Virus record (IMG/VR): IMGVR_UViG_2734482772_000015
Location: 1 to 9,336 of that record
Source of the DNA: a virus
Lineage: Duplodnaviria; Heunggongvirae; Uroviricota; Caudoviricetes
Strand: one strand, 5' to 3'
DNA: 9,336 bases
Shown here: positions 1-9,336 of the stretch, piece after piece
Position numbering within the stretch: position 1 is the first letter of the stretch
How the letters are laid out: each line of letters starts with the position of its first letter
Translations under genes and position numbers: made by a program
The notes under the pieces: generated by a model
Databases searched by the model: none
The model's input: the letters and a program-made list of their open reading frames with translations, nothing else
Told to the model about the DNA's origin: nothing

Positions 1-537
1 TTACTCGTCCAGCAGAATCACTTTGCCAATATACGGCAGATGACGGTAACGCTGTGCGTAATCAATGCCGTAACCCACCACAAACTCATCCGGGATCGAG
101 AAACCGATAAATTCTACCGGGACGTTCACTTCACGACGGGACGGTTTATCCAGCAGCGTACAAATCGCCAGCGACTTCGGTTCGCGCAGGCTTAAGATCT
201 CACGCACTTTCGACAGTGTATTCCCCGAGTCGATGATATCTTCAACAATCAGCACGTCCTTGCCACGGATATCTTCATCCAGATCTTTGAGGATTTTCAC
301 ATCACGGGTGGTGGACATGCCGCTACCGTAGCTGGAGGCGGTCATAAAGTCGACTTCATGAGATACCTGAACTTCACGGCACAGGTCCGCCATAAACATA
401 AATGAGCCACGCAGCAGACCCACCAGCACCATATCGCTGCCGCTGTCTTTGTAACGCTCAGTAATCTGACGACCCAGTTCGGCGATACGCGCTTTAATCT
501 CCGCTTCGGGGATCATTACTTCTACAATATGTTTCAT
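1..537 (-). CDS. hpt: hypoxanthine phosphoribosyltransferase
   Basis: 178-aa ORF with ATG at 535-537 and TAA at 1-3. The translation matches enterobacterial Hpt as I remember it almost residue for residue, including the PRPP-binding loop [14 protein letters not shown]. Confidence 0.95.
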
Positions 538-551
538 AAACTTTATATCCC

Positions 552-567
552 ACTGATTTTAATCAGT
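552..567. promoter_or_regulatory. perfect 7-bp inverted repeat ACTGATT-tt-AATCAGT in the hpt leader/promoter region
   Basis: Read directly from the sequence, 16-31 nt upstream of the hpt ATG. Function unknown; possibly a native operator or leader hairpin. Confidence 0.3.
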
Positions 568-790
568 TAAATTAACAAACACGCCATGCATTTTAGCTAA
601 AAGTGATACACCGAGTGATATACGGATTATTGCACAAAGCCGAAAATATGCGAAAGCATGAGCACGGTAGAAAGGCGGCGAGTATAACAGTATTAAAAAG
701 CAAATTATGAATCTCTTATTGTATGAGACATCTATCCCACAATAACCCATTATCAGCATCCCCACGCATCATGCCCACCAGCGTGAAGCA

Positions 791-876
791 TTTTTCGCGG
801 GTATAAAAAATCGATGGAGCGGGCAGTCCGGAAGACGTCAGGGTACAGAGATTTGACCCGCCCCTCCCTGTGCATG
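791..876. repeat. degenerate ~85-bp repeat, copy X1
   Basis: About 70% identical by eye to 1085-1165. Shared blocks: TTTC(g/a)CGGG, TAAAAAaTCGA, GGCGGGCA(g/c)TCC, GATTT, CCCCTCC, TG(c/a)ATG. Confidence 0.45.
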
Positions 877-890
877 AGCACAATAAGTAA

Positions 891-914
891 CCGAAGGCGG
901 AATTCCGCCCTCGG
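891..914 (-). terminator. GC-rich hairpin centred on GAATTC; possible minus-strand intrinsic terminator
   Basis: As minus-strand RNA, CCGAGGGCGG-AAUU-CCGCCUUCGG forms a 10-bp stem with one G-U pair and is followed by UUACUUAUU. The plus-strand version has an A-C mismatch, so the structure favours the minus strand. Confidence 0.35.
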
Positions 915-942
915 TACTCACATATGAGAAACGATATTTCTT

Positions 943-1060
943 CCACCGATACCCTTTATTTGGGTATCGCGAGTAAGCCCCAAAATCTGGGTGTTACTCT
1001 TACTACCCAAACTACGGGTAGTTTCCGTAGTTTCATAGTCGAGTTGCAGATCTGCAACTC
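943..1060. repeat. 118-bp direct repeat, copy A (three internal hairpins)
   Basis: Near-identical to 1379-1496 with about 5 mismatches. Contains hairpins GATACCC-tttattt-GGGTATC, AAACTACGG-gtagttt-CCGTAGTTT, and the perfect 20-bp palindrome GAGTTGCAGATCTGCAACTC. Confidence 0.8.
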
Positions 1061-1084
1061 GCTATCAGTCAGGGAAATTTTGTA

Positions 1085-1165
1085 ATTTCACGGGGGTAAA
1101 AATTCGAAGAGGCGGGCACTCCAAGAGATAAGAGACGGTAGGGATTTTGCTCCCCCTCCTGAATG
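1085..1165. repeat. degenerate ~85-bp repeat, copy X2
   Basis: Diverged copy of 791-876 (see there). Confidence 0.45.
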
Positions 1166-1175
1166 CAATTTTTCG

Positions 1176-1350
1176 TATATATATATACAAAACAGTGCGG
1201 GTTATGCGGGTTAGCGGGTTATCTTTGCGTGCTAAGTATTTTTTATTCTTTAATATCAATGCGTTGAAAAATGACACGTTCAAATGTTAGCCAAATCGTA
1301 ACCCGCAAGCCATTCAAAATAACCCGCAACCACCCCCAAATAACCCGCAA
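1176..1350. other. iteron-flanked AT-rich segment: candidate replication origin (alternative: recombinase arm-type binding sites)
   Basis: (TA)6 at 1179-1190. Three tandem 9-bp units GCGGGTTAT / GCGGGTTAG / CGGGTTAT at 1197-1222. A 76-bp AT-rich spacer at 1223-1298. Three inverted copies of ATAACCCGCAA at 1299, 1320 and 1341, spaced exactly 21 bp apart. Confidence 0.5.
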
Positions 1351-1378
1351 ACACATCAGGAAAATGGGGCCAGTGACG

Positions 1379-1496
1379 CCACCGATACCCTATATTTGGG
1401 TATCGCAAGTAAGCCCCAAAATCTGGGTGTTACTCTTACTACCCAAACTACGGGTAGTTTCCGTAGTTTCATGGTCGAGTTGCAAATCTGCAACTC
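1379..1496. repeat. 118-bp direct repeat, copy B
   Basis: Direct repeat of 943-1060. The terminal palindrome is imperfect here (GAGTTGCAAATCTGCAACTC), so the central GATC is lost. Confidence 0.8.
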
Positions 1497-1786
1497 ACCC
1501 ACCAGCCAACCCATTTTGGGGCTGTCGGAAATATCAACCAGTTACTGACAATGCTCTGGGCGTTCTGTCTAGCTGGTGGCTGTGGCTGGACGCTAATTTT
1601 TGCGTACCACTTTTGCGCACTTTTTCAGGGTCGGATTTCAGATCCCCACCATTCTGGGAGCAGTTGCAGGGGCCGAATAAATCAATAGCCGTGCTGGTAA
1701 CGTTTTGCATGACAAGTTTTGACAGTTTTTTATCTTCCGGCCTCCTCAAAATTGAGGATTGAAGAAAAGTCAATGGGTTAGGTCAT

Positions 1787-1827
1787 CGTGCAAATTTGCA
1801 CTATGCCAGCCAACGCAATTTTGCGTT
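1787..1827. promoter_or_regulatory. two related palindromes (operator-like)
   Basis: GTGCAAATTTGCAC at 1787-1800 and AACGCAATTTTGCGTT at 1812-1827 share the core GCAA(A/T)TTTGC and lie just downstream of the 96-aa ORF on the minus strand. Confidence 0.3.
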
Positions 1828-1845
1828 ATCGGGAATATCAGCAAG

Positions 1846-2136
1846 TTACCGCCGCAGTCGTTCCGGCTTCTTCCACTGGTAAGTATTTTTCGCGCTCTCC
1901 CTCCGTTGTTGAGAACGGCGACGGTATGCCAGCAACTCAAGGACTCTGGTTCGTATGTTGCGCATATCCACGCCGTTAAGCTCAATACCGTCACGGCGCA
2001 TCACCTCAGCCACCACACGCGCGTAATTTTCGGCTATCACGCTGTCCGGCTGTGTAGCCTGTTCGTCAGGCTGCTGACTGATTCCGGTAATGCGGCGAAT
2101 TATTTTTAGTAGATCAGTTTCAGTCATTCTCGTCAT
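1846..2136 (-). CDS. hypothetical 96-aa protein, translationally coupled to terL
   Basis: ATG at 2134-2136 overlaps the terL stop codon (ATGA). Charged, helical-looking composition, unlike the Cys/His-rich antisense ORF. No family recognised. Confidence 0.5.
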   Translation of the reverse strand: MTRMTETDLLKIIRRITGISQQPDEQATQPDSVIAENYARVVAEVMRRDGIELNGVDMRNIRTRVLELLAYRRRSQQRRESAKNTYQWKKPERLRR

Positions 2137-3794
2137 ACCCCATCAAACGCCGCAAGTCGCTTTTTGTGGCTGTCGCTCATATCAAATGCAAATTCCTCAT
2201 GCTCTGCCTGGAATGTGCCAAACGCCATCAGCGCCGCAACGCTCGGGTCTATCTTGTTGGATGATTTTTTCTTGTTCGGCTTGATATTGGCGTTCGCGTC
2301 ACTCTGCATCACAACATTACTCATTGACCAGGCCAGCACCGGATCACCACGATGCACAATCACCTTCCGGTTAACAAAAACTTCGAACGATTTCGCCGCC
2401 GGACTGAAACGAAGGTATGTTTGCGGGAACGGCTCCACTTCTAATCCTGCCCCCTGTAGCTGCGTCCTCAGGTGCGTGGCGTTCCATGTATCGAAGCCCA
2501 CCAGCCTGATATTGAAATTCTCTGCATCCGCCATGATGTCATCACGGATACGGTCATAATCAATGCAGTCACCCGGTGTTGTGCGTATCCAGCCCGCCTT
2601 TACCCACTGGCGATAGATGGCGCGGTTTTTATTGGCGGGGTTCTGTAGCTGAAATTCCGGCAGATAGTGACGGGAAACCAGCATAATCTTTTTACCGACC
2701 GGAAAGGCATAGCACACGCTGGAAATATCGCTGGTTGATGATAAGTCCAGCCCCGCGTAGCACTCCTGCCCGTATAAATCCGCCTCCGCGAACGTTCCGG
2801 CGCACTCCGTCCATGCACCGTTACCCATCCACGGCGTAGCCCCCTGACACCAGATATTGAATCGCTTGGTGAGCATTTCCACCCACTGCGACGGAATACC
2901 CCGCGCTTTCTGGATGGTTGAGGCCAGTTTTTCACGATCGACGGAAACATCGATATTTGGATTCGCCTTTATCCACATCGCCGGATCGTCAACCTCGCTT
3001 TCATCATCCAGCTCGTAAATCAGAACGAACATGGATTCGTTCATCTCTTCACCATCCAGTATCTGACAGCAATAGTCATAGTGTTGTTTACAGGCTGAAA
3101 CAACGTTGCTCCCCGATGTGGTAATGGCAAATAACAGCCCCTCCGGACGCGCCCCCATCCCCAGCTCAAGTGCGGAATAAACCCCGTTGTCTGGGTGCAG
3201 GTGATATTCATCCACAATGGCAAGACTCGGGTTTGTCCCCTCAATGGTTGCCGCTTTTGCTGCCAGTGGCTTTAACAGGCTGTTGGTTTTCGGGTGTATC
3301 ACCTTGTGCGCCTGAATATTTACCCGCTTTCGTAACGGTCGGGATAAAAGGCACATCTGACGCGCATCATCAAACACGATCCGCGCCTGATCACGACTCA
3401 CGGCGGCGGTGTAAATATCCTGCTGCCCGTTTTCCATAACCAGAAACCAGTTAGCCAGGATAGCGGCGACCGTGGATTTGGCATTTTTTCGCGGTACTTC
3501 AATGAATGCGCTGGTGTATTTGCGCCGTCCGGTGGCCTTAACCTTAAAGCCCAGGATGCACGCAAAGGCGAACTGCTGCCACGGCTCCAGCTCAATGGGG
3601 CTACCACGCATTGCGCCTTTTACGTGCGGACACACCCTGGAAAAGGCAATAAACCGCTCAACGACCTCCGGATCGAACGTGTAAAGGGGGTTTTCAAGGT
3701 CAGAAAAATACCGTTTAACGGCCTGTTTCAGTCGTTTACAGGCCGTAATTTTGCCGTTTTTTACGCCTTCTGCGTACTCATGCCAGGCAGTCAA
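2133..3794 (-). CDS. phage terminase large subunit
   Basis: 553 aa with the overall layout of a phage terminase large subunit, including an N-terminal ATPase region with a Walker-A-like PRKNAKST. The start codon is TTG at 3792-3794, preceded by the SD-like GAGGAAGAGGA. No in-frame ATG occurs until about residue 62. Confidence 0.88.
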   Translation of the reverse strand: MTAWHEYAEGVKNGKITACKRLKQAVKRYFSDLENPLYTFDPEVVERFIAFSRVCPHVKGAMRGSPIELEPWQQFAFACILGFKVKATGRRKYTSAFIEVPRKNAKSTVAAILANWFLVMENGQQDIYTAAVSRDQARIVFDDARQMCLLSRPLRKRVNIQAHKVIHPKTNSLLKPLAAKAATIEGTNPSLAIVDEYHLHPDNGVYSALELGMGARPEGLLFAITTSGSNVVSACKQHYDYCCQILDGEEMNESMFVLIYELDDESEVDDPAMWIKANPNIDVSVDREKLASTIQKARGIPSQWVEMLTKRFNIWCQGATPWMGNGAWTECAGTFAEADLYGQECYAGLDLSSTSDISSVCYAFPVGKKIMLVSRHYLPEFQLQNPANKNRAIYRQWVKAGWIRTTPGDCIDYDRIRDDIMADAENFNIRLVGFDTWNATHLRTQLQGAGLEVEPFPQTYLRFSPAAKSFEVFVNRKVIVHRGDPVLAWSMSNVVMQSDANANIKPNKKKSSNKIDPSVAALMAFGTFQAEHEEFAFDMSDSHKKRLAAFDGV

Positions 3795-4134
3795 GCTCGT
3801 CCTCTTCCTCTGTTTCCGGTGGATTTCTGCGGCGGCTTACCGGGTCAAAACCCAGCAAAGAAGCCATTTTGATCATTATTCTTTCTGCGTCAGCCTTTGC
3901 GCTCAGGGCGGGGTTTCTGCTCTCGCTGCCCTGACTGTTAACAATGCTGAACCCGCGCGTCGCAAGGTCTTCGACGGCTTTGCGGTATATGGAGTAGTTA
4001 ACGCAATACAGTTCCAGATTGCTCCAGTCGGCGGGGGTAAGGTCTTCCCGCCCGGAAAGCTGGCGCGATTTTTCCTTCCACTGCCTGACCGCGATTTCAT
4101 CCAGGTAAGCGGGGGCTTTTGGTGGTCTTGCCAT
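3778..4134 (-). CDS. phage terminase small subunit (P27-like)
   Basis: 119 aa from the ATG at 4132-4134, beginning MARPPKAPAYLDE, which is typical of P27-family small terminases. Acidic C-terminal tail. Its 3' end overlaps the terL start by 17 nt. The longer 165-aa reading was rejected. Confidence 0.75.
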   Translation of the reverse strand: MARPPKAPAYLDEIAVRQWKEKSRQLSGREDLTPADWSNLELYCVNYSIYRKAVEDLATRGFSIVNSQGSESRNPALSAKADAERIMIKMASLLGFDPVSRRRNPPETEEEDELDCLA

Positions 4135-4149
4135 GTTCTTTTTTCGCCC

Positions 4150-4260
4150 AATTATTTTCAAAAAAATTACCGTGCACAAAAATTTGAGGGGGCGGTCGGT
4201 GTCCGGCAGGGACGGTTTCGTCCTGAAAACCACCCCCACCCCCTCTGACGGCCTCACCAG
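4150..4260. other. candidate cos / packaging-initiation region in the HNH-TerS gap
   Basis: The 285-bp non-coding gap (4138-4422) holds an A-rich tract (4155-4185) and a GC-rich segment with inverted GAGGGGG (4186-4192) / CCCCCTC (4239-4245) flanking GGACG-gtt-tCGTCC. The position between HNH and TerS is where cos sites sit in HK97-like phages. Confidence 0.35.
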
Positions 4261-4422
4261 CGATTGCGAAAACATTCCATGACCTCGCGGTCACGGTCGG
4301 TTAATCGCTTCGCTGTGGTGCGTTTTGTGCGCCCTGTCCTGTTGGCTTTGTGCTCTGTCTCCTGTGTCTTCCATGTGTCACGCTGCCTTATCAGTCCACG
4401 TATCAGCCTGGTTTGCTCCTGT

Positions 4423-4863
4423 TCAGTCATCATCGCCATACATCCAGTCGTTACGGTGTGCCGCCCGTTCTTCCTGCTCGCGATACATGCCCGCTTTACG
4501 GTTTGCTTTCGTGGCTGGATCTTCCCGTGTCGTCTTACGGTTGTGGCACGTCTGGCACAATGCCTGGTGATTCCACTCAGGCCAGAAGAGAACATCACCG
4601 CCGCCATTGATGGGAATGATGTGATCCACCACAAGAGCTGGCGTATAAATCCCCTTAGCCAGACAACGCACGCATAACGGGTTTTTGCTCAGGTACAGGG
4701 CGCGGTATTTGTCCCACTGTCGGGAATACCCGCGCGCGCGGCGGTGTCCCCGTCTGGCATCCTCTGCACGCCATGCAGCCCGCCTGTGCTCTTCACACTT
4801 GCCGGACTTCACGCGCTTATTACAGCCAGGCTCAGTGCATCGCCTTAATGGTTGCCACGGCAT
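4423..4863 (-). CDS. HNH endonuclease (terminase-associated)
   Basis: 146 aa with paired Cys pairs (CTEPGC...C and CVRC), VDHIIP, and N...LC..CHNRKT, i.e. an HNH motif. Its start overlaps the connector stop (TGATG). Confidence 0.85.
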   Translation of the reverse strand: MPWQPLRRCTEPGCNKRVKSGKCEEHRRAAWRAEDARRGHRRARGYSRQWDKYRALYLSKNPLCVRCLAKGIYTPALVVDHIIPINGGGDVLFWPEWNHQALCQTCHNRKTTREDPATKANRKAGMYREQEERAAHRNDWMYGDDD

Positions 4864-5165
4864 CAGTACACCCCCACATCACGATAAACCGACCAGAGCG
4901 CAGAAATAGCCATAGGCAGTTCCGAGTGCTCAACTGGTGAAACCGCTTCCCGGTTCTCGTACAGAAAAGCGATGTACATCAGGCAACCAACACGTATTGC
5001 CGGGGTAAATTCCAGGCCGTCTTCAAAACGTTTCCCGATATGCTTCTGGCAGGCTTCCAGCGCCGCATCGGTATATATTTGCAGAAGTTCAACCTCACCA
5101 TAAAAATCATCATCAAGGCGAAGATGGGCCATTACTTCATTAAGCGTAATTCTGGATTCACTCAT
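4863..5165 (-). CDS. head-tail connector / DNA-packaging protein (gp6-like)
   Basis: 100 aa from the ATG at 5163-5165, with the SD AAGGTGA upstream. The N-terminus MSESRITLNEVMAHLRLDDD resembles gp6-type head-tail connectors. Its start overlaps the portal 3' end. Confidence 0.65.
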   Translation of the reverse strand: MSESRITLNEVMAHLRLDDDFYGEVELLQIYTDAALEACQKHIGKRFEDGLEFTPAIRVGCLMYIAFLYENREAVSPVEHSELPMAISALWSVYRDVGVY

Positions 5166-6372
5166 CTTTTTCACCTTTAATTTCCACAGTCTGCTTCCAT
5201 GCCTGGCTGAACTCGTCACCCCCTTCACGCGGCGGCATACCCTCACGCTCACGGGCTTCGTTCGGATTCATGATCCCGTTCTTAATCCCTTTCTCATACG
5301 TGGCATAACGTTCGGTGGGTGTGGCGCGTAATAAATCGGCTGAATCAAACTCAACCAGATAACGGGTACCAGGTACGGGAGAAGCCACCAGCAAAGCGGC
5401 CTTGATTTGCTGTTCGAAGTTCGCCAGCCATGGGCGCATTGTCATGGTCAGAAACGCGCGGCTTGCCTCGCTGAAATTGCTGTAGGTGCTGTTGCTGTAT
5501 TCCTGCAGAAAAATAGGCGATACGTTGAACATGCGGGCGATGTCTTCAATGGAGAAGCGACGGGAGGCCAGCCATTCCGCATCCTGGTTACTCATTCCCA
5601 GTTGCTTGTAATCCATGCCCCCTTCAAGGATTGGCGTTTTTCCGGCATTTTTCGCCCCCTTGTAGCGTTCCAGAGCATCTAATGCCTGTTTACCTTTCAC
5701 GCCGTCCAGCCATTCGCCTGACGTGATAATCCCTGCCGCCATCATGCCATCTTTCATAATGCTGGCTCCGTGGCGCTGTTGAGCAAGGCCAAGCCCAAGC
5801 GCCTCACGGCAAATCGTGACAGGGGAACGCCCCAGAAAGCCATCATCCGAGGCATAGCGGAGATGCAGAACTTCTTCCTGTAAATACGTGCGCACCGTTC
5901 CTGTATAGGGTTCGGTGATGGTATAGCGGTATTTGTGTGCGCCTGTGCGTTCCGGTACAACACACCCCGGCGCATAAGGATGAAGTGATTTTGGCTGCCC
6001 GTCTTGCCCCCACTCAATAACCGCATAGGCGTTACCGTTCAGCAGGCAGTGACGCATCATTGTGCGTTTAAACTGGTAAGGTGTCTGGCACGAATTAGGC
6101 TGCTCATTCAGCAGAATATCTACCGGGTGACTGTCCAGCCATTCCCGCGCCTCCCTGCCCTTGTCATTACGTACCAGATACAGATAACACGGCATCGTGG
6201 CCACCGCCTCAGCGATGACAGAAACCGCGTTCATCACTGCAGGCAATGATTCAGCCGTCCCGGCAGAAACATATTCTCCGGATCCGGTATTCGGTACGCC
6301 GGACAGCGCCAGAAAATCATCAATGGACAGGTTACGCTGCTCGCTTTTTTTACGACTAAAAGGCCACCACAT
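5158..6372 (-). CDS. phage portal protein (HK97 family)
   Basis: About 404 aa from the ATG at 6370-6372, which lies 1 nt after the protease stop. Size and position fit a portal. The track's longer start at 6462 is a TTG and was not preferred. Confidence 0.88.
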   Translation of the reverse strand: MWWPFSRKKSEQRNLSIDDFLALSGVPNTGSGEYVSAGTAESLPAVMNAVSVIAEAVATMPCYLYLVRNDKGREAREWLDSHPVDILLNEQPNSCQTPYQFKRTMMRHCLLNGNAYAVIEWGQDGQPKSLHPYAPGCVVPERTGAHKYRYTITEPYTGTVRTYLQEEVLHLRYASDDGFLGRSPVTICREALGLGLAQQRHGASIMKDGMMAAGIITSGEWLDGVKGKQALDALERYKGAKNAGKTPILEGGMDYKQLGMSNQDAEWLASRRFSIEDIARMFNVSPIFLQEYSNSTYSNFSEASRAFLTMTMRPWLANFEQQIKAALLVASPVPGTRYLVEFDSADLLRATPTERYATYEKGIKNGIMNPNEAREREGMPPREGGDEFSQAWKQTVEIKGEKDE

Positions 6373-6373
6373 A

Positions 6374-6934
6374 TCACAACCCCGCCAGCTCAGACCAGCG
6401 ATGACGATTATTTCCTGTCGGGCATAATTCAGGGTGCTGTGCAAACAACGAACGGTGGGCAATCTCCACGCCAGATTCTGGATAAGCAGGCATCGACGTT
6501 ATTGTGATTTCACGGAGTTCAGCGGCGGTTACGGTACGCAAATACGGTTTTTGCGCGATACTCCACTCCTCGCATAATGCGCGAAAACCAAAGCTCATTC
6601 CTGTAATGTCGCCACGCTCCACCAGCGTAAGCACATCTTTTCCAAGCTGGGTATCCGGCGGTGTCAGTTCAAAACGTAACCCGGTGTTATCCTCAGTCAG
6701 TACCAGAGTGCCGGATTTGGTGCGCCCCAGCAGTTGGGTATAGTCATGCTCATACAGGCAGCGCACATCATTACCCGCCGCCAGATAGTCAGCAAAAGCC
6801 CCCGGCGTGAACTGTTCGCGGAATTCGTCCCAGATAATTTCTGAAAGGCTGTTCCAGCGAACGGCATACCCCACCAGCTTTTTATTGCTGGCGGTCAGTT
6901 CAGATGTGCGGATTTCAAAATCGGTGTTTTTCAT
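6374..6934 (-). CDS. prohead maturation protease (HK97 family)
   Basis: 186 aa with ATG at 6932-6934 and SD GGGGA. Size and its position between the capsid and portal genes fit a prohead protease. Confidence 0.8.
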   Translation of the reverse strand: MKNTDFEIRTSELTASNKKLVGYAVRWNSLSEIIWDEFREQFTPGAFADYLAAGNDVRCLYEHDYTQLLGRTKSGTLVLTEDNTGLRFELTPPDTQLGKDVLTLVERGDITGMSFGFRALCEEWSIAQKPYLRTVTAAELREITITSMPAYPESGVEIAHRSLFAQHPELCPTGNNRHRWSELAGL

Positions 6935-6953
6935 CGGTGTATCCCCTGAAGCT

Positions 6954-6977
6954 AAAAAAGGAGGCCGAAGCCTCCTT
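6954..6977 (-). terminator. intrinsic terminator / attenuator between the capsid and protease genes
   Basis: Minus-strand RNA reads AAGGAGGC-UUCG-GCCUCCUU followed by UUUUAG: an 8-bp stem with a C(UUCG)G tetraloop and a U-tract, lying between the capsid stop (6983-6985) and the protease start. Confidence 0.6.
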
Positions 6978-6982
6978 GCTCA

Positions 6983-8128
6983 TTACTCACCAGCCTGAAT
7001 TTCCAGAATCTTGATGGCGTTCGAATCCACCACACCACCGCCCAGATATTTCTGGGTATAGATGTTAATGAATCCGGGTTCGCTGAAGTCCGGACGGGTA
7101 CGCGTACCGGTTTCATGGTCAACGATGAAATAACCGCGCTTAAAGTCACCTACTGCAATCACACCGTCCGGCATAAATTCCAGATATTCAACCGGAAGCC
7201 CCAGCAGAGAATCAGGATCACCAGCCTGTAAACGATCGCGCCAGATGTAATCACCAGTGGCATTTTTCAGTTTTTGTGCGGAGGCGGCTGTATTTGAGTT
7301 CATCACCCATACAGCTTTTTTGCGGTACTTATTGCGCAGCGTAAATTTCAGGTCAATCAGCATGTCGGCGCTGAGACTGCCAGTAACTTTTTTCGTCTGG
7401 AGCGTACCGAAAGGACGGGTTTTGTCGTTATCCGCAGTGCGCGGGAACGCCAGGAAACCTTTAGCTTTTTTCTCGCCGTCACCGGAAACCAGATCCGTTT
7501 CTTCGGTATCAACGAAAGTGTCGCCAATTTCAGAAGATAACCAGCTCATAATATCGACTTCGGAAAAATCGATAATTTCCTGAGTGGTTTTCGGGTAAGC
7601 GTAGATCGGATACAGGCGGATGCTGACTTCGTTCAGTTTCGGCGTTGCCGTCTGGTTACGTGCCGCACCTTCCTCGCCATGCTCAACCACCGCGCCACCA
7701 GCGGAAACCAGTTGCTTAAATTCATTGCTGTGAATGGTTTTAACGGTACAGATTTTGCGCATCACCGATTCATCGGCAAGCTGGCGCATAATCTCTTTAT
7801 TCAGCTCGGGAATAACGGTATAGCCACCATCAGCCGGGACACTGCCGGACAGGTTGCGGGTTTCCCCGGTCAGAATGTAAGAGCGCAGTTCATCTTTGGT
7901 GATTTTCTCTTCGACGGAAACACCAGGCTGGTTACGTTCTTCATCCGCAACAGCTTCAAGACGGGAAATTTCTGTGTCGAGGGAATCGGCTTTTGCACGC
8001 AGTTCATCAAACTGTTTGCCCTCGTCATCGTTCAGGCTGCGGTTTTCACTGTCGGCTTTTTCCAGCAGGGATCGCATCTGGTTTTTCAGGGCGGTTTTTT
8101 GCTGGCGGAGTTCGATTAATTTCTTCAT
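6983..8128 (-). CDS. major capsid protein (HK97 fold) with N-terminal scaffolding (delta) domain
   Basis: 381 aa with ATG at 8126-8128. The first ~100 residues are coiled-coil-like and charged (delta domain), followed by a capsid-like body ending in a Gly-rich C-terminus. Confidence 0.9.
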   Translation of the reverse strand: MKKLIELRQQKTALKNQMRSLLEKADSENRSLNDDEGKQFDELRAKADSLDTEISRLEAVADEERNQPGVSVEEKITKDELRSYILTGETRNLSGSVPADGGYTVIPELNKEIMRQLADESVMRKICTVKTIHSNEFKQLVSAGGAVVEHGEEGAARNQTATPKLNEVSIRLYPIYAYPKTTQEIIDFSEVDIMSWLSSEIGDTFVDTEETDLVSGDGEKKAKGFLAFPRTADNDKTRPFGTLQTKKVTGSLSADMLIDLKFTLRNKYRKKAVWVMNSNTAASAQKLKNATGDYIWRDRLQAGDPDSLLGLPVEYLEFMPDGVIAVGDFKRGYFIVDHETGTRTRPDFSEPGFINIYTQKYLGGGVVDSNAIKILEIQAGE

Positions 8129-8198
8129 GAAGGTTTTCTCGTATTGGTTAAGATTCAGGACGTGAAACCAACACGGAGGGAGCGCCGCCCGACACTCT

Positions 8199-8247
8199 CG
8201 GCATCTCGCAGATCAACCCGGCATCGCGCAGGGGGTCAGGCGGCATT
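8199..8247 (-). promoter_or_regulatory. phased direct repeats upstream of the capsid operon (candidate activator site / late promoter region)
   Basis: CGGCATCTCGCA at 8199-8210, CGGCATCGCGCA at 8219-8230 and CGGCATT at 8241-8247 are spaced about 20-22 bp apart, 70-120 nt upstream of the capsid ATG in the 245-bp gap. Confidence 0.3.
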
Positions 8248-8361
8248 GTGGCGGCTCACGTCTGAGTGCCACACGCCAACATATACATAAAAATCAGTAT
8301 GTAAATATCAGCCAGAATCACTGAACAGCCAGAAACAACCACGAACAAATAATTTACAAAA

Positions 8362-8390
8362 CCTGAAAAGAAAACCCGGAAAAATCCGGG
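8362..8390 (-). terminator. putative intrinsic terminator after the 82-aa ORF
   Basis: Minus-strand RNA reads CCCGGA-UUUU-UCCGGG followed by UUUUCUUUUCAGG, beginning 12 nt after the stop codon at 8402-8404. The stem is short (6 bp). Confidence 0.45.
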
Positions 8391-8401
8391 CCTTTATCGC
8401 T

Positions 8402-8650
8402 TTACTGTTTCATGGAATCCCGCATTCTGCGTCTTATTTTCCACAGATATTCGATCATCGCTTCCACCTGCTCACGGTTGGTTGCGAAAATTTCCCCTGT
8501 CAGTGAGCTACGCAGAAAATCATGATGATCTACAAAAAACAACGCATCGGAAGAAAGCAGACGGCGATATTTTTTTGCTGTCGTGGTTTCCAGATCATCA
8601 AAACCATGAAACTTTTTATGTTGCTGGACTTCTTCAAATGTCACTGGCAT
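8402..8650 (-). CDS. hypothetical 82-aa protein
   Basis: ATG at 8648-8650 with a strong SD (GGGGGGA) and good spacing after the SSB stop. No family recognised. Confidence 0.5.
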   Translation of the reverse strand: MPVTFEEVQQHKKFHGFDDLETTTAKKYRRLLSSDALFFVDHHDFLRSSLTGEIFATNREQVEAMIEYLWKIRRRMRDSMKQ

Positions 8651-8668
8651 GTATCCCCCCTGTTATCG

Positions 8669-9094
8669 CTAAAACGGTATTTCATCCCCGTACGGGTCAT
8701 CGTGCTGGCCTGTCTGTTGTTTTGCCCTGTTCAGTGCGTCAGTGGCCTGCCCCTGCTGGCCTTTTTTGCCACCAGGTCGCGCCGTTCGCGCACTGATTAC
8801 GCTGTCTGCGATAACCTGCCAGCCCTGCCGCGTTTCCCCGTTCTGGCCTGTCCACTGGCTTACCTGCATGTTACCCGCCACGCTCACCAGCTCGCCTTTG
8901 TGGTGTTTTGCCAGTGCGTCGGCCTGTCTGCCAAACGCCAGGACGGATAACCACATCATCGCCGTTCCGTCATCTGCCTGGCTGCACGGCAGGGGGACCG
9001 CCATGCTCGCCATAGCCATTTGTGTGCCCTTGCTGGTGGTCTTTAACTGTGGGTCAGCCACCAGCCGTCCGTAAGCCGCTATCTGTGCTGTCAT
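8669..9094 (-). CDS. ssb: single-stranded DNA-binding protein (SSB-like)
   Basis: 141 aa with an OB-fold-like N-terminal core, a Gly/Gln-rich linker, and an acidic C-terminal tip ...DDPYGDEIPF (compare the canonical SSB tip DDDIPF). Its start overlaps the upstream ORF stop (ATGA). Confidence 0.75.
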   Translation of the reverse strand: MTAQIAAYGRLVADPQLKTTSKGTQMAMASMAVPLPCSQADDGTAMMWLSVLAFGRQADALAKHHKGELVSVAGNMQVSQWTGQNGETRQGWQVIADSVISARTARPGGKKGQQGQATDALNRAKQQTGQHDDPYGDEIPF

Positions 9095-9336
9095 GCTGTC
9101 TGCTCTCCGGTTTTAACGTTGATGGTTGTCACCTGTTCCGCTTCGGCAATCTCCCGTTCTGTCAGCGTGGCAAAGTTTGCAGCTGCCGTTGTCATGAATG
9201 AGCTAATCAGTTCGGGATGTGCTTTCGCATATCCTTCCCCGGCGTTGCGGTCGATGATTTTTATCGACACCCTTAACCAGTGTTCCGTCAAATCAAGGGC
9301 GTGCGATTGTGATTTTTTTGTGTGCTTCGCTGTCAT
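9091..9336 (-). CDS. hypothetical 81-aa protein (start coincides with window edge; may extend upstream)
   Basis: The ORF begins at an ATG at 9334-9336 and is translationally coupled to ssb. No family recognised. The true start cannot be verified because the window ends here. Confidence 0.4.
   Translation of the reverse strand: MTAKHTKKSQSHALDLTEHWLRVSIKIIDRNAGEGYAKAHPELISSFMTTAAANFATLTEREIAEAEQVTTINVKTGEQTA

Follow-up and report, generated by a model that had tools for sequence, protein, structure and literature searches.

Phage-inducible chromosomal islands of the capsid-forming kind (cf-PICIs) were published in 2022-2023, and 969 of them (cfPICIs) had been catalogued by 2023 (de Sousa et al., NAR 2023, PMC10085698). 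The proteobacterial cf-PICIs carry their genes in the order capsid-protease-portal-head connector(s), followed by hnh-terS-terL (Alqurainy et al., bioRxiv 10.1101/2022.09.08.507074). The prototype, EcCIEDL933 of E. coli O157:H7, has a length of 15.4-15.5 kb (Alqurainy et al., bioRxiv 10.1101/2022.09.08.507074; He et al., bioRxiv 10.1101/2025.02.11.637232), and its capsid is described by the structure PDB 9GYI (He et al.). A stretch of 9,336 nucleotides filed as a virus of the Caudoviricetes (IMG/VR record IMGVR_UViG_2734482772_000015, positions 1 to 9,336; the whole stretch is hereafter called the window) was compared with this family. With a probability of about 0.88, judged from its sequence, the window represents the int-distal ~9 kb, i.e., the right-hand two thirds, of a ~15.5 kb cf-PICI of the EcCIEDL933 family that a tyrosine integrase has inserted within the initial 19 nt of the host gene hpt.

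Gene content, gene order and insertion site

The genes of the window are all located on the minus strand, with every open reading frame (ORF) intact. The part 1846-9336 encodes a single-stranded DNA-binding protein (SSB), the major capsid protein (MCP), an S78 protease, the portal, a gp6-like adaptor, an HNH endonuclease, a P27-type TerS and TerL (the small and large terminase subunits), and four small ORFs of no assigned function. The named functions are backed by Pfam, PHROGs and NCBIfam profiles, with E-values from 1e-5 to 1e-180.

1-537, minus strand: hpt (hypoxanthine phosphoribosyltransferase), the host gene; an ORF annotated as hpt in the relatives
1846-2136, minus strand: orf96, 96 aa (93 aa from the alternative start at 2127); phrog_1561, 1e-53
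2133-3794, minus strand: TerL; ATPase 4e-26, nuclease 5e-53
3778-4134, minus strand: TerS of the P27 family; Terminase_4, 4e-23, with PHROGs and NCBIfam
4135-4253, no strand assigned: candidate cos, a 119-nt non-coding gap between orf61 and terS with GAGGGGGTGGGGGTGGTTTTCAGGAC ... CCGCCCCCTC
4254-4439, minus strand: orf61, basic, 61 aa, between HNH and the candidate cos; phrog_3173, 6e-27
4423-4863, minus strand: HNH endonuclease, a packaging accessory; 9e-10
4863-5165, minus strand: gp6-like head-tail adaptor (Ad1), the sole head-completion gene; PF05135 7e-5, phrog_40 'Ad1' 8e-30, TIGR01560 2.5e-20
5158-6372, minus strand: portal; 6e-93
6374-6934, minus strand: prohead serine protease of the HK97 family (S78); 7e-46
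6983-8128, minus strand: MCP with the HK97 fold; PF05065 1.3e-60, TIGR01554 1.4e-88
8402-8650, minus strand: orf82; phrog_1957, 2e-36
8669-9094, minus strand: SSB; 1.7e-15
9091-9336, minus strand: orf81, located after the rep-proximal origin (ori); phrog_1231, 8e-49

The start of TerS was placed at 4134 rather than at the longest-ORF start 4275. The overlaps of the consecutive genes (17 nt for TerS/TerL and for orf61/HNH, 1 nt for HNH/adaptor, 8 nt for adaptor/portal and 4 nt for TerL/orf96) and their abutments are consistent with the translational coupling of one operon. The initial annotation, a reading of the letters alone, had proposed a capsid-forming satellite with a cos-type packaging set, and the strong profile matches of HNH, TerS and TerL within this co-directional operon bear out its packaging genes, as the profiles do for every other structural and packaging assignment made there. 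The gap noticed between HNH and TerS is real, being composed of the conserved 61-aa ORF (4254-4439) and 119 nt of non-coding DNA (4135-4253), and the SSB (8669-9094) with the small orf82 and orf81 does lie upstream of the structural genes. The families of tail, tape-measure, baseplate, holin and endolysin proteins gave no match among the window ORFs in Pfam, PHROGs and NCBIfam, in agreement with the absence of tail, tape-measure and lysis genes claimed before. The satellite-like order equals the published proteobacterial cf-PICI order, with the hnh-terS-terL genes of the element itself downstream of its morphogenetic genes, among which its own major capsid, prohead protease and portal were found by all three profile sets.

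Among the solved structures, 9GYI is closest to the MCP (E 5e-187, ~75% identity), and the MCP of an island in an O157:H7 genome (L009) matches the 9GYI sequence, that island being used here as the EcCIEDL933-type reference. The amino acid identity to this reference is 75% for MCP, 62% for protease, 81% for portal, 58% for the adaptor, 84% for HNH, 77% for orf61, 88% for TerS, 93% for TerL and 75% for orf96. The Pfam capsid domain starts from MCP residue 101 and thus leaves an N-terminal delta/scaffold-like region. The 'connector loop', which sets the capsid protein of the T=4 EcCIEDL933 capsid apart from that of HK97 (He et al.), is retained without gaps, and so are five of the five residues D257, K290, D295, E319 and R345, whose mutations impaired the EcCIEDL933 transfer (He et al.). 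Both islands possess the SSB, a small ORF, MCP, protease, portal, gp6-like protein, HNH, a small ORF, TerS, TerL and a small ORF, and both are of ~15.5 kb, with int/alpA/primase in the left half and without tail or lysis genes. They differ in the integration site, which is phoQ/roxA with another integrase in EcCIEDL933 and the 5' end of hpt here, and in the replication module, where a DUF927 replicase with GCGGGTTA iterons in EcCIEDL933 stands against a P4-alpha-like replicase with TGTTCACC iterons here. Since the adaptor is only 58% identical to the EcCIEDL933 type, the tail of another helper would be expected. In the phage database, close matches to the adaptor were only satellite-sized records, the true phages reaching at most 40% identity, which agrees with the published distance of the cf-PICI genes from the phage genes (Alqurainy et al.).

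The window is 100% identical to an Escherichia coli draft contig, JUBR01000055.1 (GCA_000797915.1; L017), which ends 145-146 nt beyond it, these extra nucleotides being 100% identical to the ori region of a complete sister island, L011 (E. coli, GCA_012044375.1). The sister differs from the window positions 1379-9336 by 3 mismatches in 7958 nt. Its left part consists of gcd, integrase, DUF6387, AlpA, an ORF6N anti-repressor-like gene, an Icd-like gene, a 106-aa ORF, DUF4222, a D5_N/DUF5906/Pox_D5 primase and the iteron region, and its right part of orf81, SSB and the further genes to TerL and orf96, then hpt and can. The integrase at one end, the AlpA-type regulator and the primase with an adjacent iteron ori are thus found in L011. 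From attachment (att) core to att core L011 measures 15,031 bp, and with the 436 nt extra of the window copy the island comes to ~15.47 kb, which lies within the cf-PICI size range of ~10-18 kb and supports the cf-PICI reading by its match to the length of EcCIEDL933. The same layout at the same site occurs in the RefSeq complete genomes KSC9, D8 and CFS3292, while the packaging module is also placed at thiM/rcnR (GF66.1, L010) and at tRNA-Ile/nfeF (A41), with other integrases, giving at least three att sites. Tail or lysis genes were found neither between the att cores of the complete sisters L011, L012, L001, L002 and L008 nor in the islands of GF66.1, L010 and A41; the contiguous tail or lysis genes that could have contradicted the satellite reading are therefore not seen in the complete copies. 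Extension of the element through L011, L001, L002, L008 and L012 revealed integrase, AlpA, primase and ori on the left, up to the gcd boundary. MCP homologues are present in 531 of the 5426 complete E. coli genomes; an exact-pattern scan of species-representative genomes for the SSB/orf81 junction gave no match. Thus, the capsid-forming satellite is supported by the gene order, by the 9GYI-related MCP and by the complete tail-less sister islands.

The features at the right boundary of the island are the following.

519-537, no strand assigned: attR core CTTCTACAATATGTTTCAT, made up of the initial 19 nt of the hpt coding sequence, and the right island boundary; the 19-mer is repeated next to int
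602-625, no strand assigned: tandem GAGTGATA(C/T)AC repeats; in L001 and L002, the 45 nt close upstream of int are similar (82%)
626-654, minus strand: sigma-70-like promoter with an extended -10 element, situated within the island DNA ~90 nt upstream of hpt; consensus match only

The 19-mer reads CTTCTACA(G/A)TATGTTTCAT, and its int-side copy has G at position 9, as in K-12. This copy adjoins int in L001, L002, L008, L011 and L012, and the intergenic sequence of K-12 between gcd and hpt takes up again immediately after it; on the other side, K-12 and the window diverge immediately upstream of the hpt start codon. The repeat at int together with the resumption of the K-12 sequence places the island in the 5' end of hpt, in its first 19 nt, and not beside the gene as had been proposed, while the suggested comparison with the empty K-12 gcd-hpt locus has defined the island boundaries. 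With the boundary in these 19 nt, the region 538-1845, described before as a non-coding repeat zone, is island DNA and not a host intergenic zone; these 1.3 kb contain no credible genes. The first codons of hpt and the whole region upstream of it have been replaced by the island, and residue 4 of Hpt is Ile in the window and Thr in K-12 (T4I). The tandem repeats 602-625 are candidates for integrase arm-type sites, and hpt may now be transcribed from 626-654, a candidate for a replacement promoter.

By homology to EcCIEDL933, the steps beyond the gene content may be pictured in the following way. A helper prophage would bring about AlpA-dependent expression, excision of the island and its replication via its own P4-alpha-like primase and the TGTTCACC-iteron ori. 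The capsid protein, protease and portal of the island would then form a small (T=4-type) procapsid, and its HNH-TerS-TerL would cut cos in the 119-nt gap upstream of terS and fill the capsid with one island genome. Finally, the portal would be capped by the gp6-like adaptor, with the tail and lysis coming from the helper phage and the head-closure protein probably being the helper's as well.

Head closure and the rival explanations

Several points weigh against the cf-PICI reading or its functional part. A head-closure homologue was sought in the window with the EcCIEDL933-type protein (tblastn), and nothing better than E 9 was obtained. The integrase, AlpA and primase lie outside the window and its contig and are assigned from the 99.96% identical sister L011. 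The cos assignment of 4135-4253 is positional, which makes it a candidate, and induction, small capsids and transfer are ascribed by homology to EcCIEDL933, the gene content being what was observed. The single-adaptor subtype to which the island belongs may also be less autonomous.

The gene concerned occupies 9820-10158 of L009, between the portal and the gp6-like gene, and is absent from the window island, where the portal and the adaptor overlap by 8 nt (5158-5165) and leave no space for it. All close relatives inspected likewise have only one head-tail gene. Of the two head-tail genes by which a cf-PICI is otherwise recognized (adaptor and connector or head-closure), the island thus has one; the adaptor and connector genes are both present in EcCIEDL933, EcCIGN02175 and KpCIDSM30104, and both proteins set the tail compatibility (He et al.). 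Accordingly, the head set that had been described as complete stands for the MCP with its delta region, the protease, the portal and the gp6-like protein, all recovered by profiles, and falls short of completeness by the head-closure gene of EcCIEDL933. Under the SatelliteFinder scheme for cfPICIs, the island has 10 of the 11 core components (the sister copy included), the forbidden tail and holin being absent, and with one head-tail component short it would be 'Type B'. This is the commonest cfPICI class (459/969), in which one missing core component is allowed and many elements are functional (PMC10085698).

The element may therefore be a cf-PICI derivative no longer independently transmissible as tail-less capsids, in which without a stopper the DNA would leak unless the helper supplies the protein in the same cell, or, in other words, a more helper-dependent variant of the known mechanism. 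The absence of the head-closure gene, the overlap that leaves no room for it and the single head-tail gene of all close relatives speak for such a derivative, and heads of the SPP1/HK97 type need a stopper for DNA retention. However, the single-adaptor subtype is common and well conserved, which argues for function, the SatelliteFinder elements with 10 of 11 components are the commonest and functional in many cases (PMC10085698), and a small ORF acting as a non-homologous head-closure substitute is conceivable. Each small window ORF has a homologue in the EcCIEDL933-type island, which itself has the head-closure gene, so that none of them looks like a replacement. On balance, the loss of independent transmissibility is regarded as a tentative alternative of rather low probability, and the single-adaptor subtype would be expected to borrow the head-closure function of the helper or to dispense with head closure.

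A decayed HK97-like prophage remnant with lost tail, lysis and immunity modules is a much weaker rival of the cf-PICI reading and is considered very unlikely. The genes for head and terminase derive from phages and resemble those of HK97, with an HK97-fold MCP and its delta region, an S78 protease, a portal, a gp6-like adaptor, an HNH-dependent cos-type terminase and a candidate cos upstream of terS; one head-completion gene fewer is present than in the prototype, and among the relatives A41 has a frameshifted protease and CFS3292 carries insertion sequences (IS). However, the window ORFs are all intact, and the same 15-16 kb plan, precisely bounded by att sequences, is found again at no fewer than three chromosomal sites and in many genomes. 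The left half is a PICI-type int-alpA-primase module and not a phage immunity/replication region, the order is that of cf-PICIs and not the terminase-first order of phages, and the adaptor does not exceed 40% identity to that of true phages. In comparison with HK97 itself, the order of the island is permuted relative to the integration, its genome is one third as long, and tail, lysis and immunity genes are lacking. A functional or defective HK97-like prophage was rejected, as there are no contiguous tail, lysis or immunity modules and the order is not terminase-first.

A P4-like satellite is scarcely credible and was refuted as a family assignment, with the replication module alone being P4-like, since the P4-type iteron TGTTCACC in the rep-proximal ori, the D5_N/Pox_D5 primase resembling P4 alpha and the presence of AlpA are set against the absence of psu-delta-sid in the window and L011 and the own capsid, portal and terminase genes, unlike in P4.

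The class of classical Rpp-type PICIs (EcCICFT073; PMC6092414, PMC6739421) was rejected as well, with no DUF1441 match, no lambda-like cosN beyond chance, and the portal and terL present. These islands share with the element the left half of int, alpA, Icd-like gene, DUF4222, primase and SSB, and at the right end orf96 (87% nt) as well as, in strains F11 and STEC313, the GCGGGTTA iteron module (87-88% nt). They differ by possessing rpp (DUF1441), a lambda-like cosN and the use of helper capsids, in place of which the element has its own capsid and terminase.

Repeat zone, iterons and the candidate cos

The repeat zone between orf96 and the hpt boundary contains the following elements.

890-915, minus strand: strong GC-rich hairpin of 11 bp, a likely terminator of the rightward operon of the island
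943-1060, no strand assigned: copy 1 of a 118-nt direct repeat, a row of hairpins, 97% identical to copy 2
1061-1378, no strand assigned: ori-like module of 318 nt with an AT-rich tract, three GCGGGTTA iterons (1197-1221) and three inverted TAACCCGC iterons (1299-1348), at 21-nt spacing
1379-1496, no strand assigned: copy 2 of the 118-nt direct repeat, 97% identical to copy 1
1502-1545, no strand assigned: 'Y' unit of repeat family D3, in which a variable hairpin is combined with the box GGAAATATCAACCAGTTA; it duplicates the junction found after the last ORF
1806-1849, no strand assigned: 'Y' unit including the orf96 stop codon

The six exact iterons of the ori-like module surround its AT-rich tract, and the module is framed by the 118-nt direct repeats. 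It aligns to half of the iteron region that, in the EcCIEDL933-type island, directly follows the DUF927 replicase on the 3' side, a position that corresponds to the PICI ori (Fillol-Salom et al. 2018). The islands with the DUF927 replicase (KSC9, CFS3292, STEC313) have the GCGGGTTA iterons both beside rep and at the distal end. The P4-alpha-like primase of the window island is flanked by TGTTCACC iterons identical to the annotation of P4 ori and crr, with ~9 copies 3' of the primase (L017 1-146; L011 9486-9707; L002 20630-20916). In P4 (NC_001609), the type-1 iteron TGTTCACC has the same place 3' of the alpha-like primase, at the crr position, and the related islands split their iteron sites between two distant places like P4 does with ori and crr; the differences are that the window island is devoid of sid, psu and delta and encodes its own head and packaging genes. 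The literature gave only unrelated primer matches for the P4 iteron string, and the annotated record NC_001609 was used. As the own ori carries TGTTCACC and the distal module GCGGGTTA, the latter is of a foreign (DUF927-Rep) type here.

The GCGGGTTA module is also located at the int-distal end of classical Rpp-type PICIs with a third iteron type, and was found in 138 genomes; its iterons show no differences in 48 positions and the remainder 20 in 190. L011, elsewhere 99.96% identical, lacks this module. The distal module as the own origin of the island was rejected, because it occurs with the DUF927, the P4-alpha-like and the TGTCTACC-type replicons without co-variation with the replicase. The module at 1061-1378 could either be left over from an exchange of modules or allow the Rep of another satellite to replicate this island. 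A stronger form of the latter, in which the module would be a working foreign-type second origin, at which the Rep of a different co-resident satellite could replicate the island in trans, with the head-closure function of the helper needed in addition, is speculative and judged improbable; if true, it would mean one satellite exploiting another, and a more dependent cf-PICI variant.

The 118-nt repeat, after which the terminator-like hairpin at 890-915 comes, folds with a z-score of about -9 whichever strand is taken. At a threshold of at least 90% identity it occurs in 665 of the 5426 complete E. coli genomes, the available copies being 93-100% identical to each other. It is more conserved than the protein genes of the islands. 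A further scan for its 20-nt palindrome found only the bare hairpin in unrelated taxa. Neither Rfam (at its gathering cut-off and at E<=1) nor the scans for tRNA and tmRNA gave a match in the window or the repeat zone, and no described Rfam RNA family matches the 118-nt repeat. It may be a 3'-untranslated region stabilizer, an RNA or a recombination site, with the stabilizing 3' end of the late operon as the simplest reading. The repeat zone as a classical PICI cos was rejected, because the lambda-like cosN GGGCGGCGACCT had 6 matches with up to 3 mismatches versus 8.2 expected by chance.

A box GAAAATATCAACCAGTTA with a variable hairpin holds the stop codon of the last ORF and recurs downstream, twice in the window and five times in L009 (6107-6503). 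These recurring stop-codon boxes look like repeated cassette junctions in a hot spot of accessory genes. In E. coli CFS3292 (L008), whose MCP gene is 100% identical to that of the window, the repeat zone contains ISApl1 and the left half contains IS1A (5219-6193 and 16830-17527).

The gap between orf61 and terS contains GAGGGGGTGGGGGTGG ... CCGCCCCCTC, is located at the cos position of the HK97-like HNH-dependent phages, and is highly conserved with the EcCIEDL933-type island though non-coding. The linear, virion-derived record LR881103 ends in the HNH-TerS gap right after the conserved GGGGTGGGGGNGGTTTTCAGGAC motif, which corresponds to ~4220 in the window; the ends of this record are suggestive only as a pointer to cos. 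LR881103.1 (L030, 'Escherichia phage vB_KppS-Ant', 16,548 bp) originated from an induced prophage and is filed as a phage with a cf-PICI-like layout, comprising int, a regulator, primase, capsid, protease, portal, two head-tail genes, HNH, TerS and TerL, and a 2.3 kb gene 3' of TerL labelled as tape measure.

Small genes, module exchange and meaning for the family

The orf96 gene gave no Pfam and no NCBIfam match, and for the small ORFs without assigned function PADLOC had no credible defence match and NCBIfam no match. Orf96, a conserved gene, also follows rpp in classical PICIs (87% nt in L004) and terL in islands of the EcCIEDL933 type (75% aa), and its sharing with the classical PICIs marks it as a gene of PICIs in general and not of the capsid. 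Directly 3' of the capsid gene, a hairpin with a T-run (6958-6977, minus strand; consensus match only) may serve as an attenuator setting the ratio of capsid to protease/portal.

One packaging module is combined with three replicases (DUF927, P4-alpha-like D5_N/Pox_D5 and AAA_25) and with two capsid alleles of 381 aa and 389 aa at ~70% nt identity, as seen from L001, L002, L013 and L015 versus the window, and the window itself matches the KSC9-like islands up to 9127 and the D8-like islands beyond. This mosaic of replicases and capsid alleles points to frequent modular recombination.

The element adds one more cf-PICI to a common family that has been known since 2022, with ~1000 catalogued members and a solved capsid structure, and the current understanding is unchanged by these findings. 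Three points go modestly beyond the literature examined, namely the location of the att site within the 5' end of hpt, the single-adaptor layout as set against the prototype for each gene, and the iteron module of foreign type. It was also found that a cf-PICI is recognisable from its gene order by a sequence-only reading. To the picture of the family are added the hpt 5'-end att site with the promoter replacement and the common single-adaptor subtype. How freely modules pass between the E. coli satellites is seen in the iteron module of foreign type, in the conserved 118-nt hairpin element and in the right-end genes that they share. The tail-less capsids of cf-PICIs can combine with the tails of unrelated phages, by which DNA can move across species, and, since the head-tail proteins set the tail choice, the single-adaptor subtype is a useful comparison for the mechanism of this choice.

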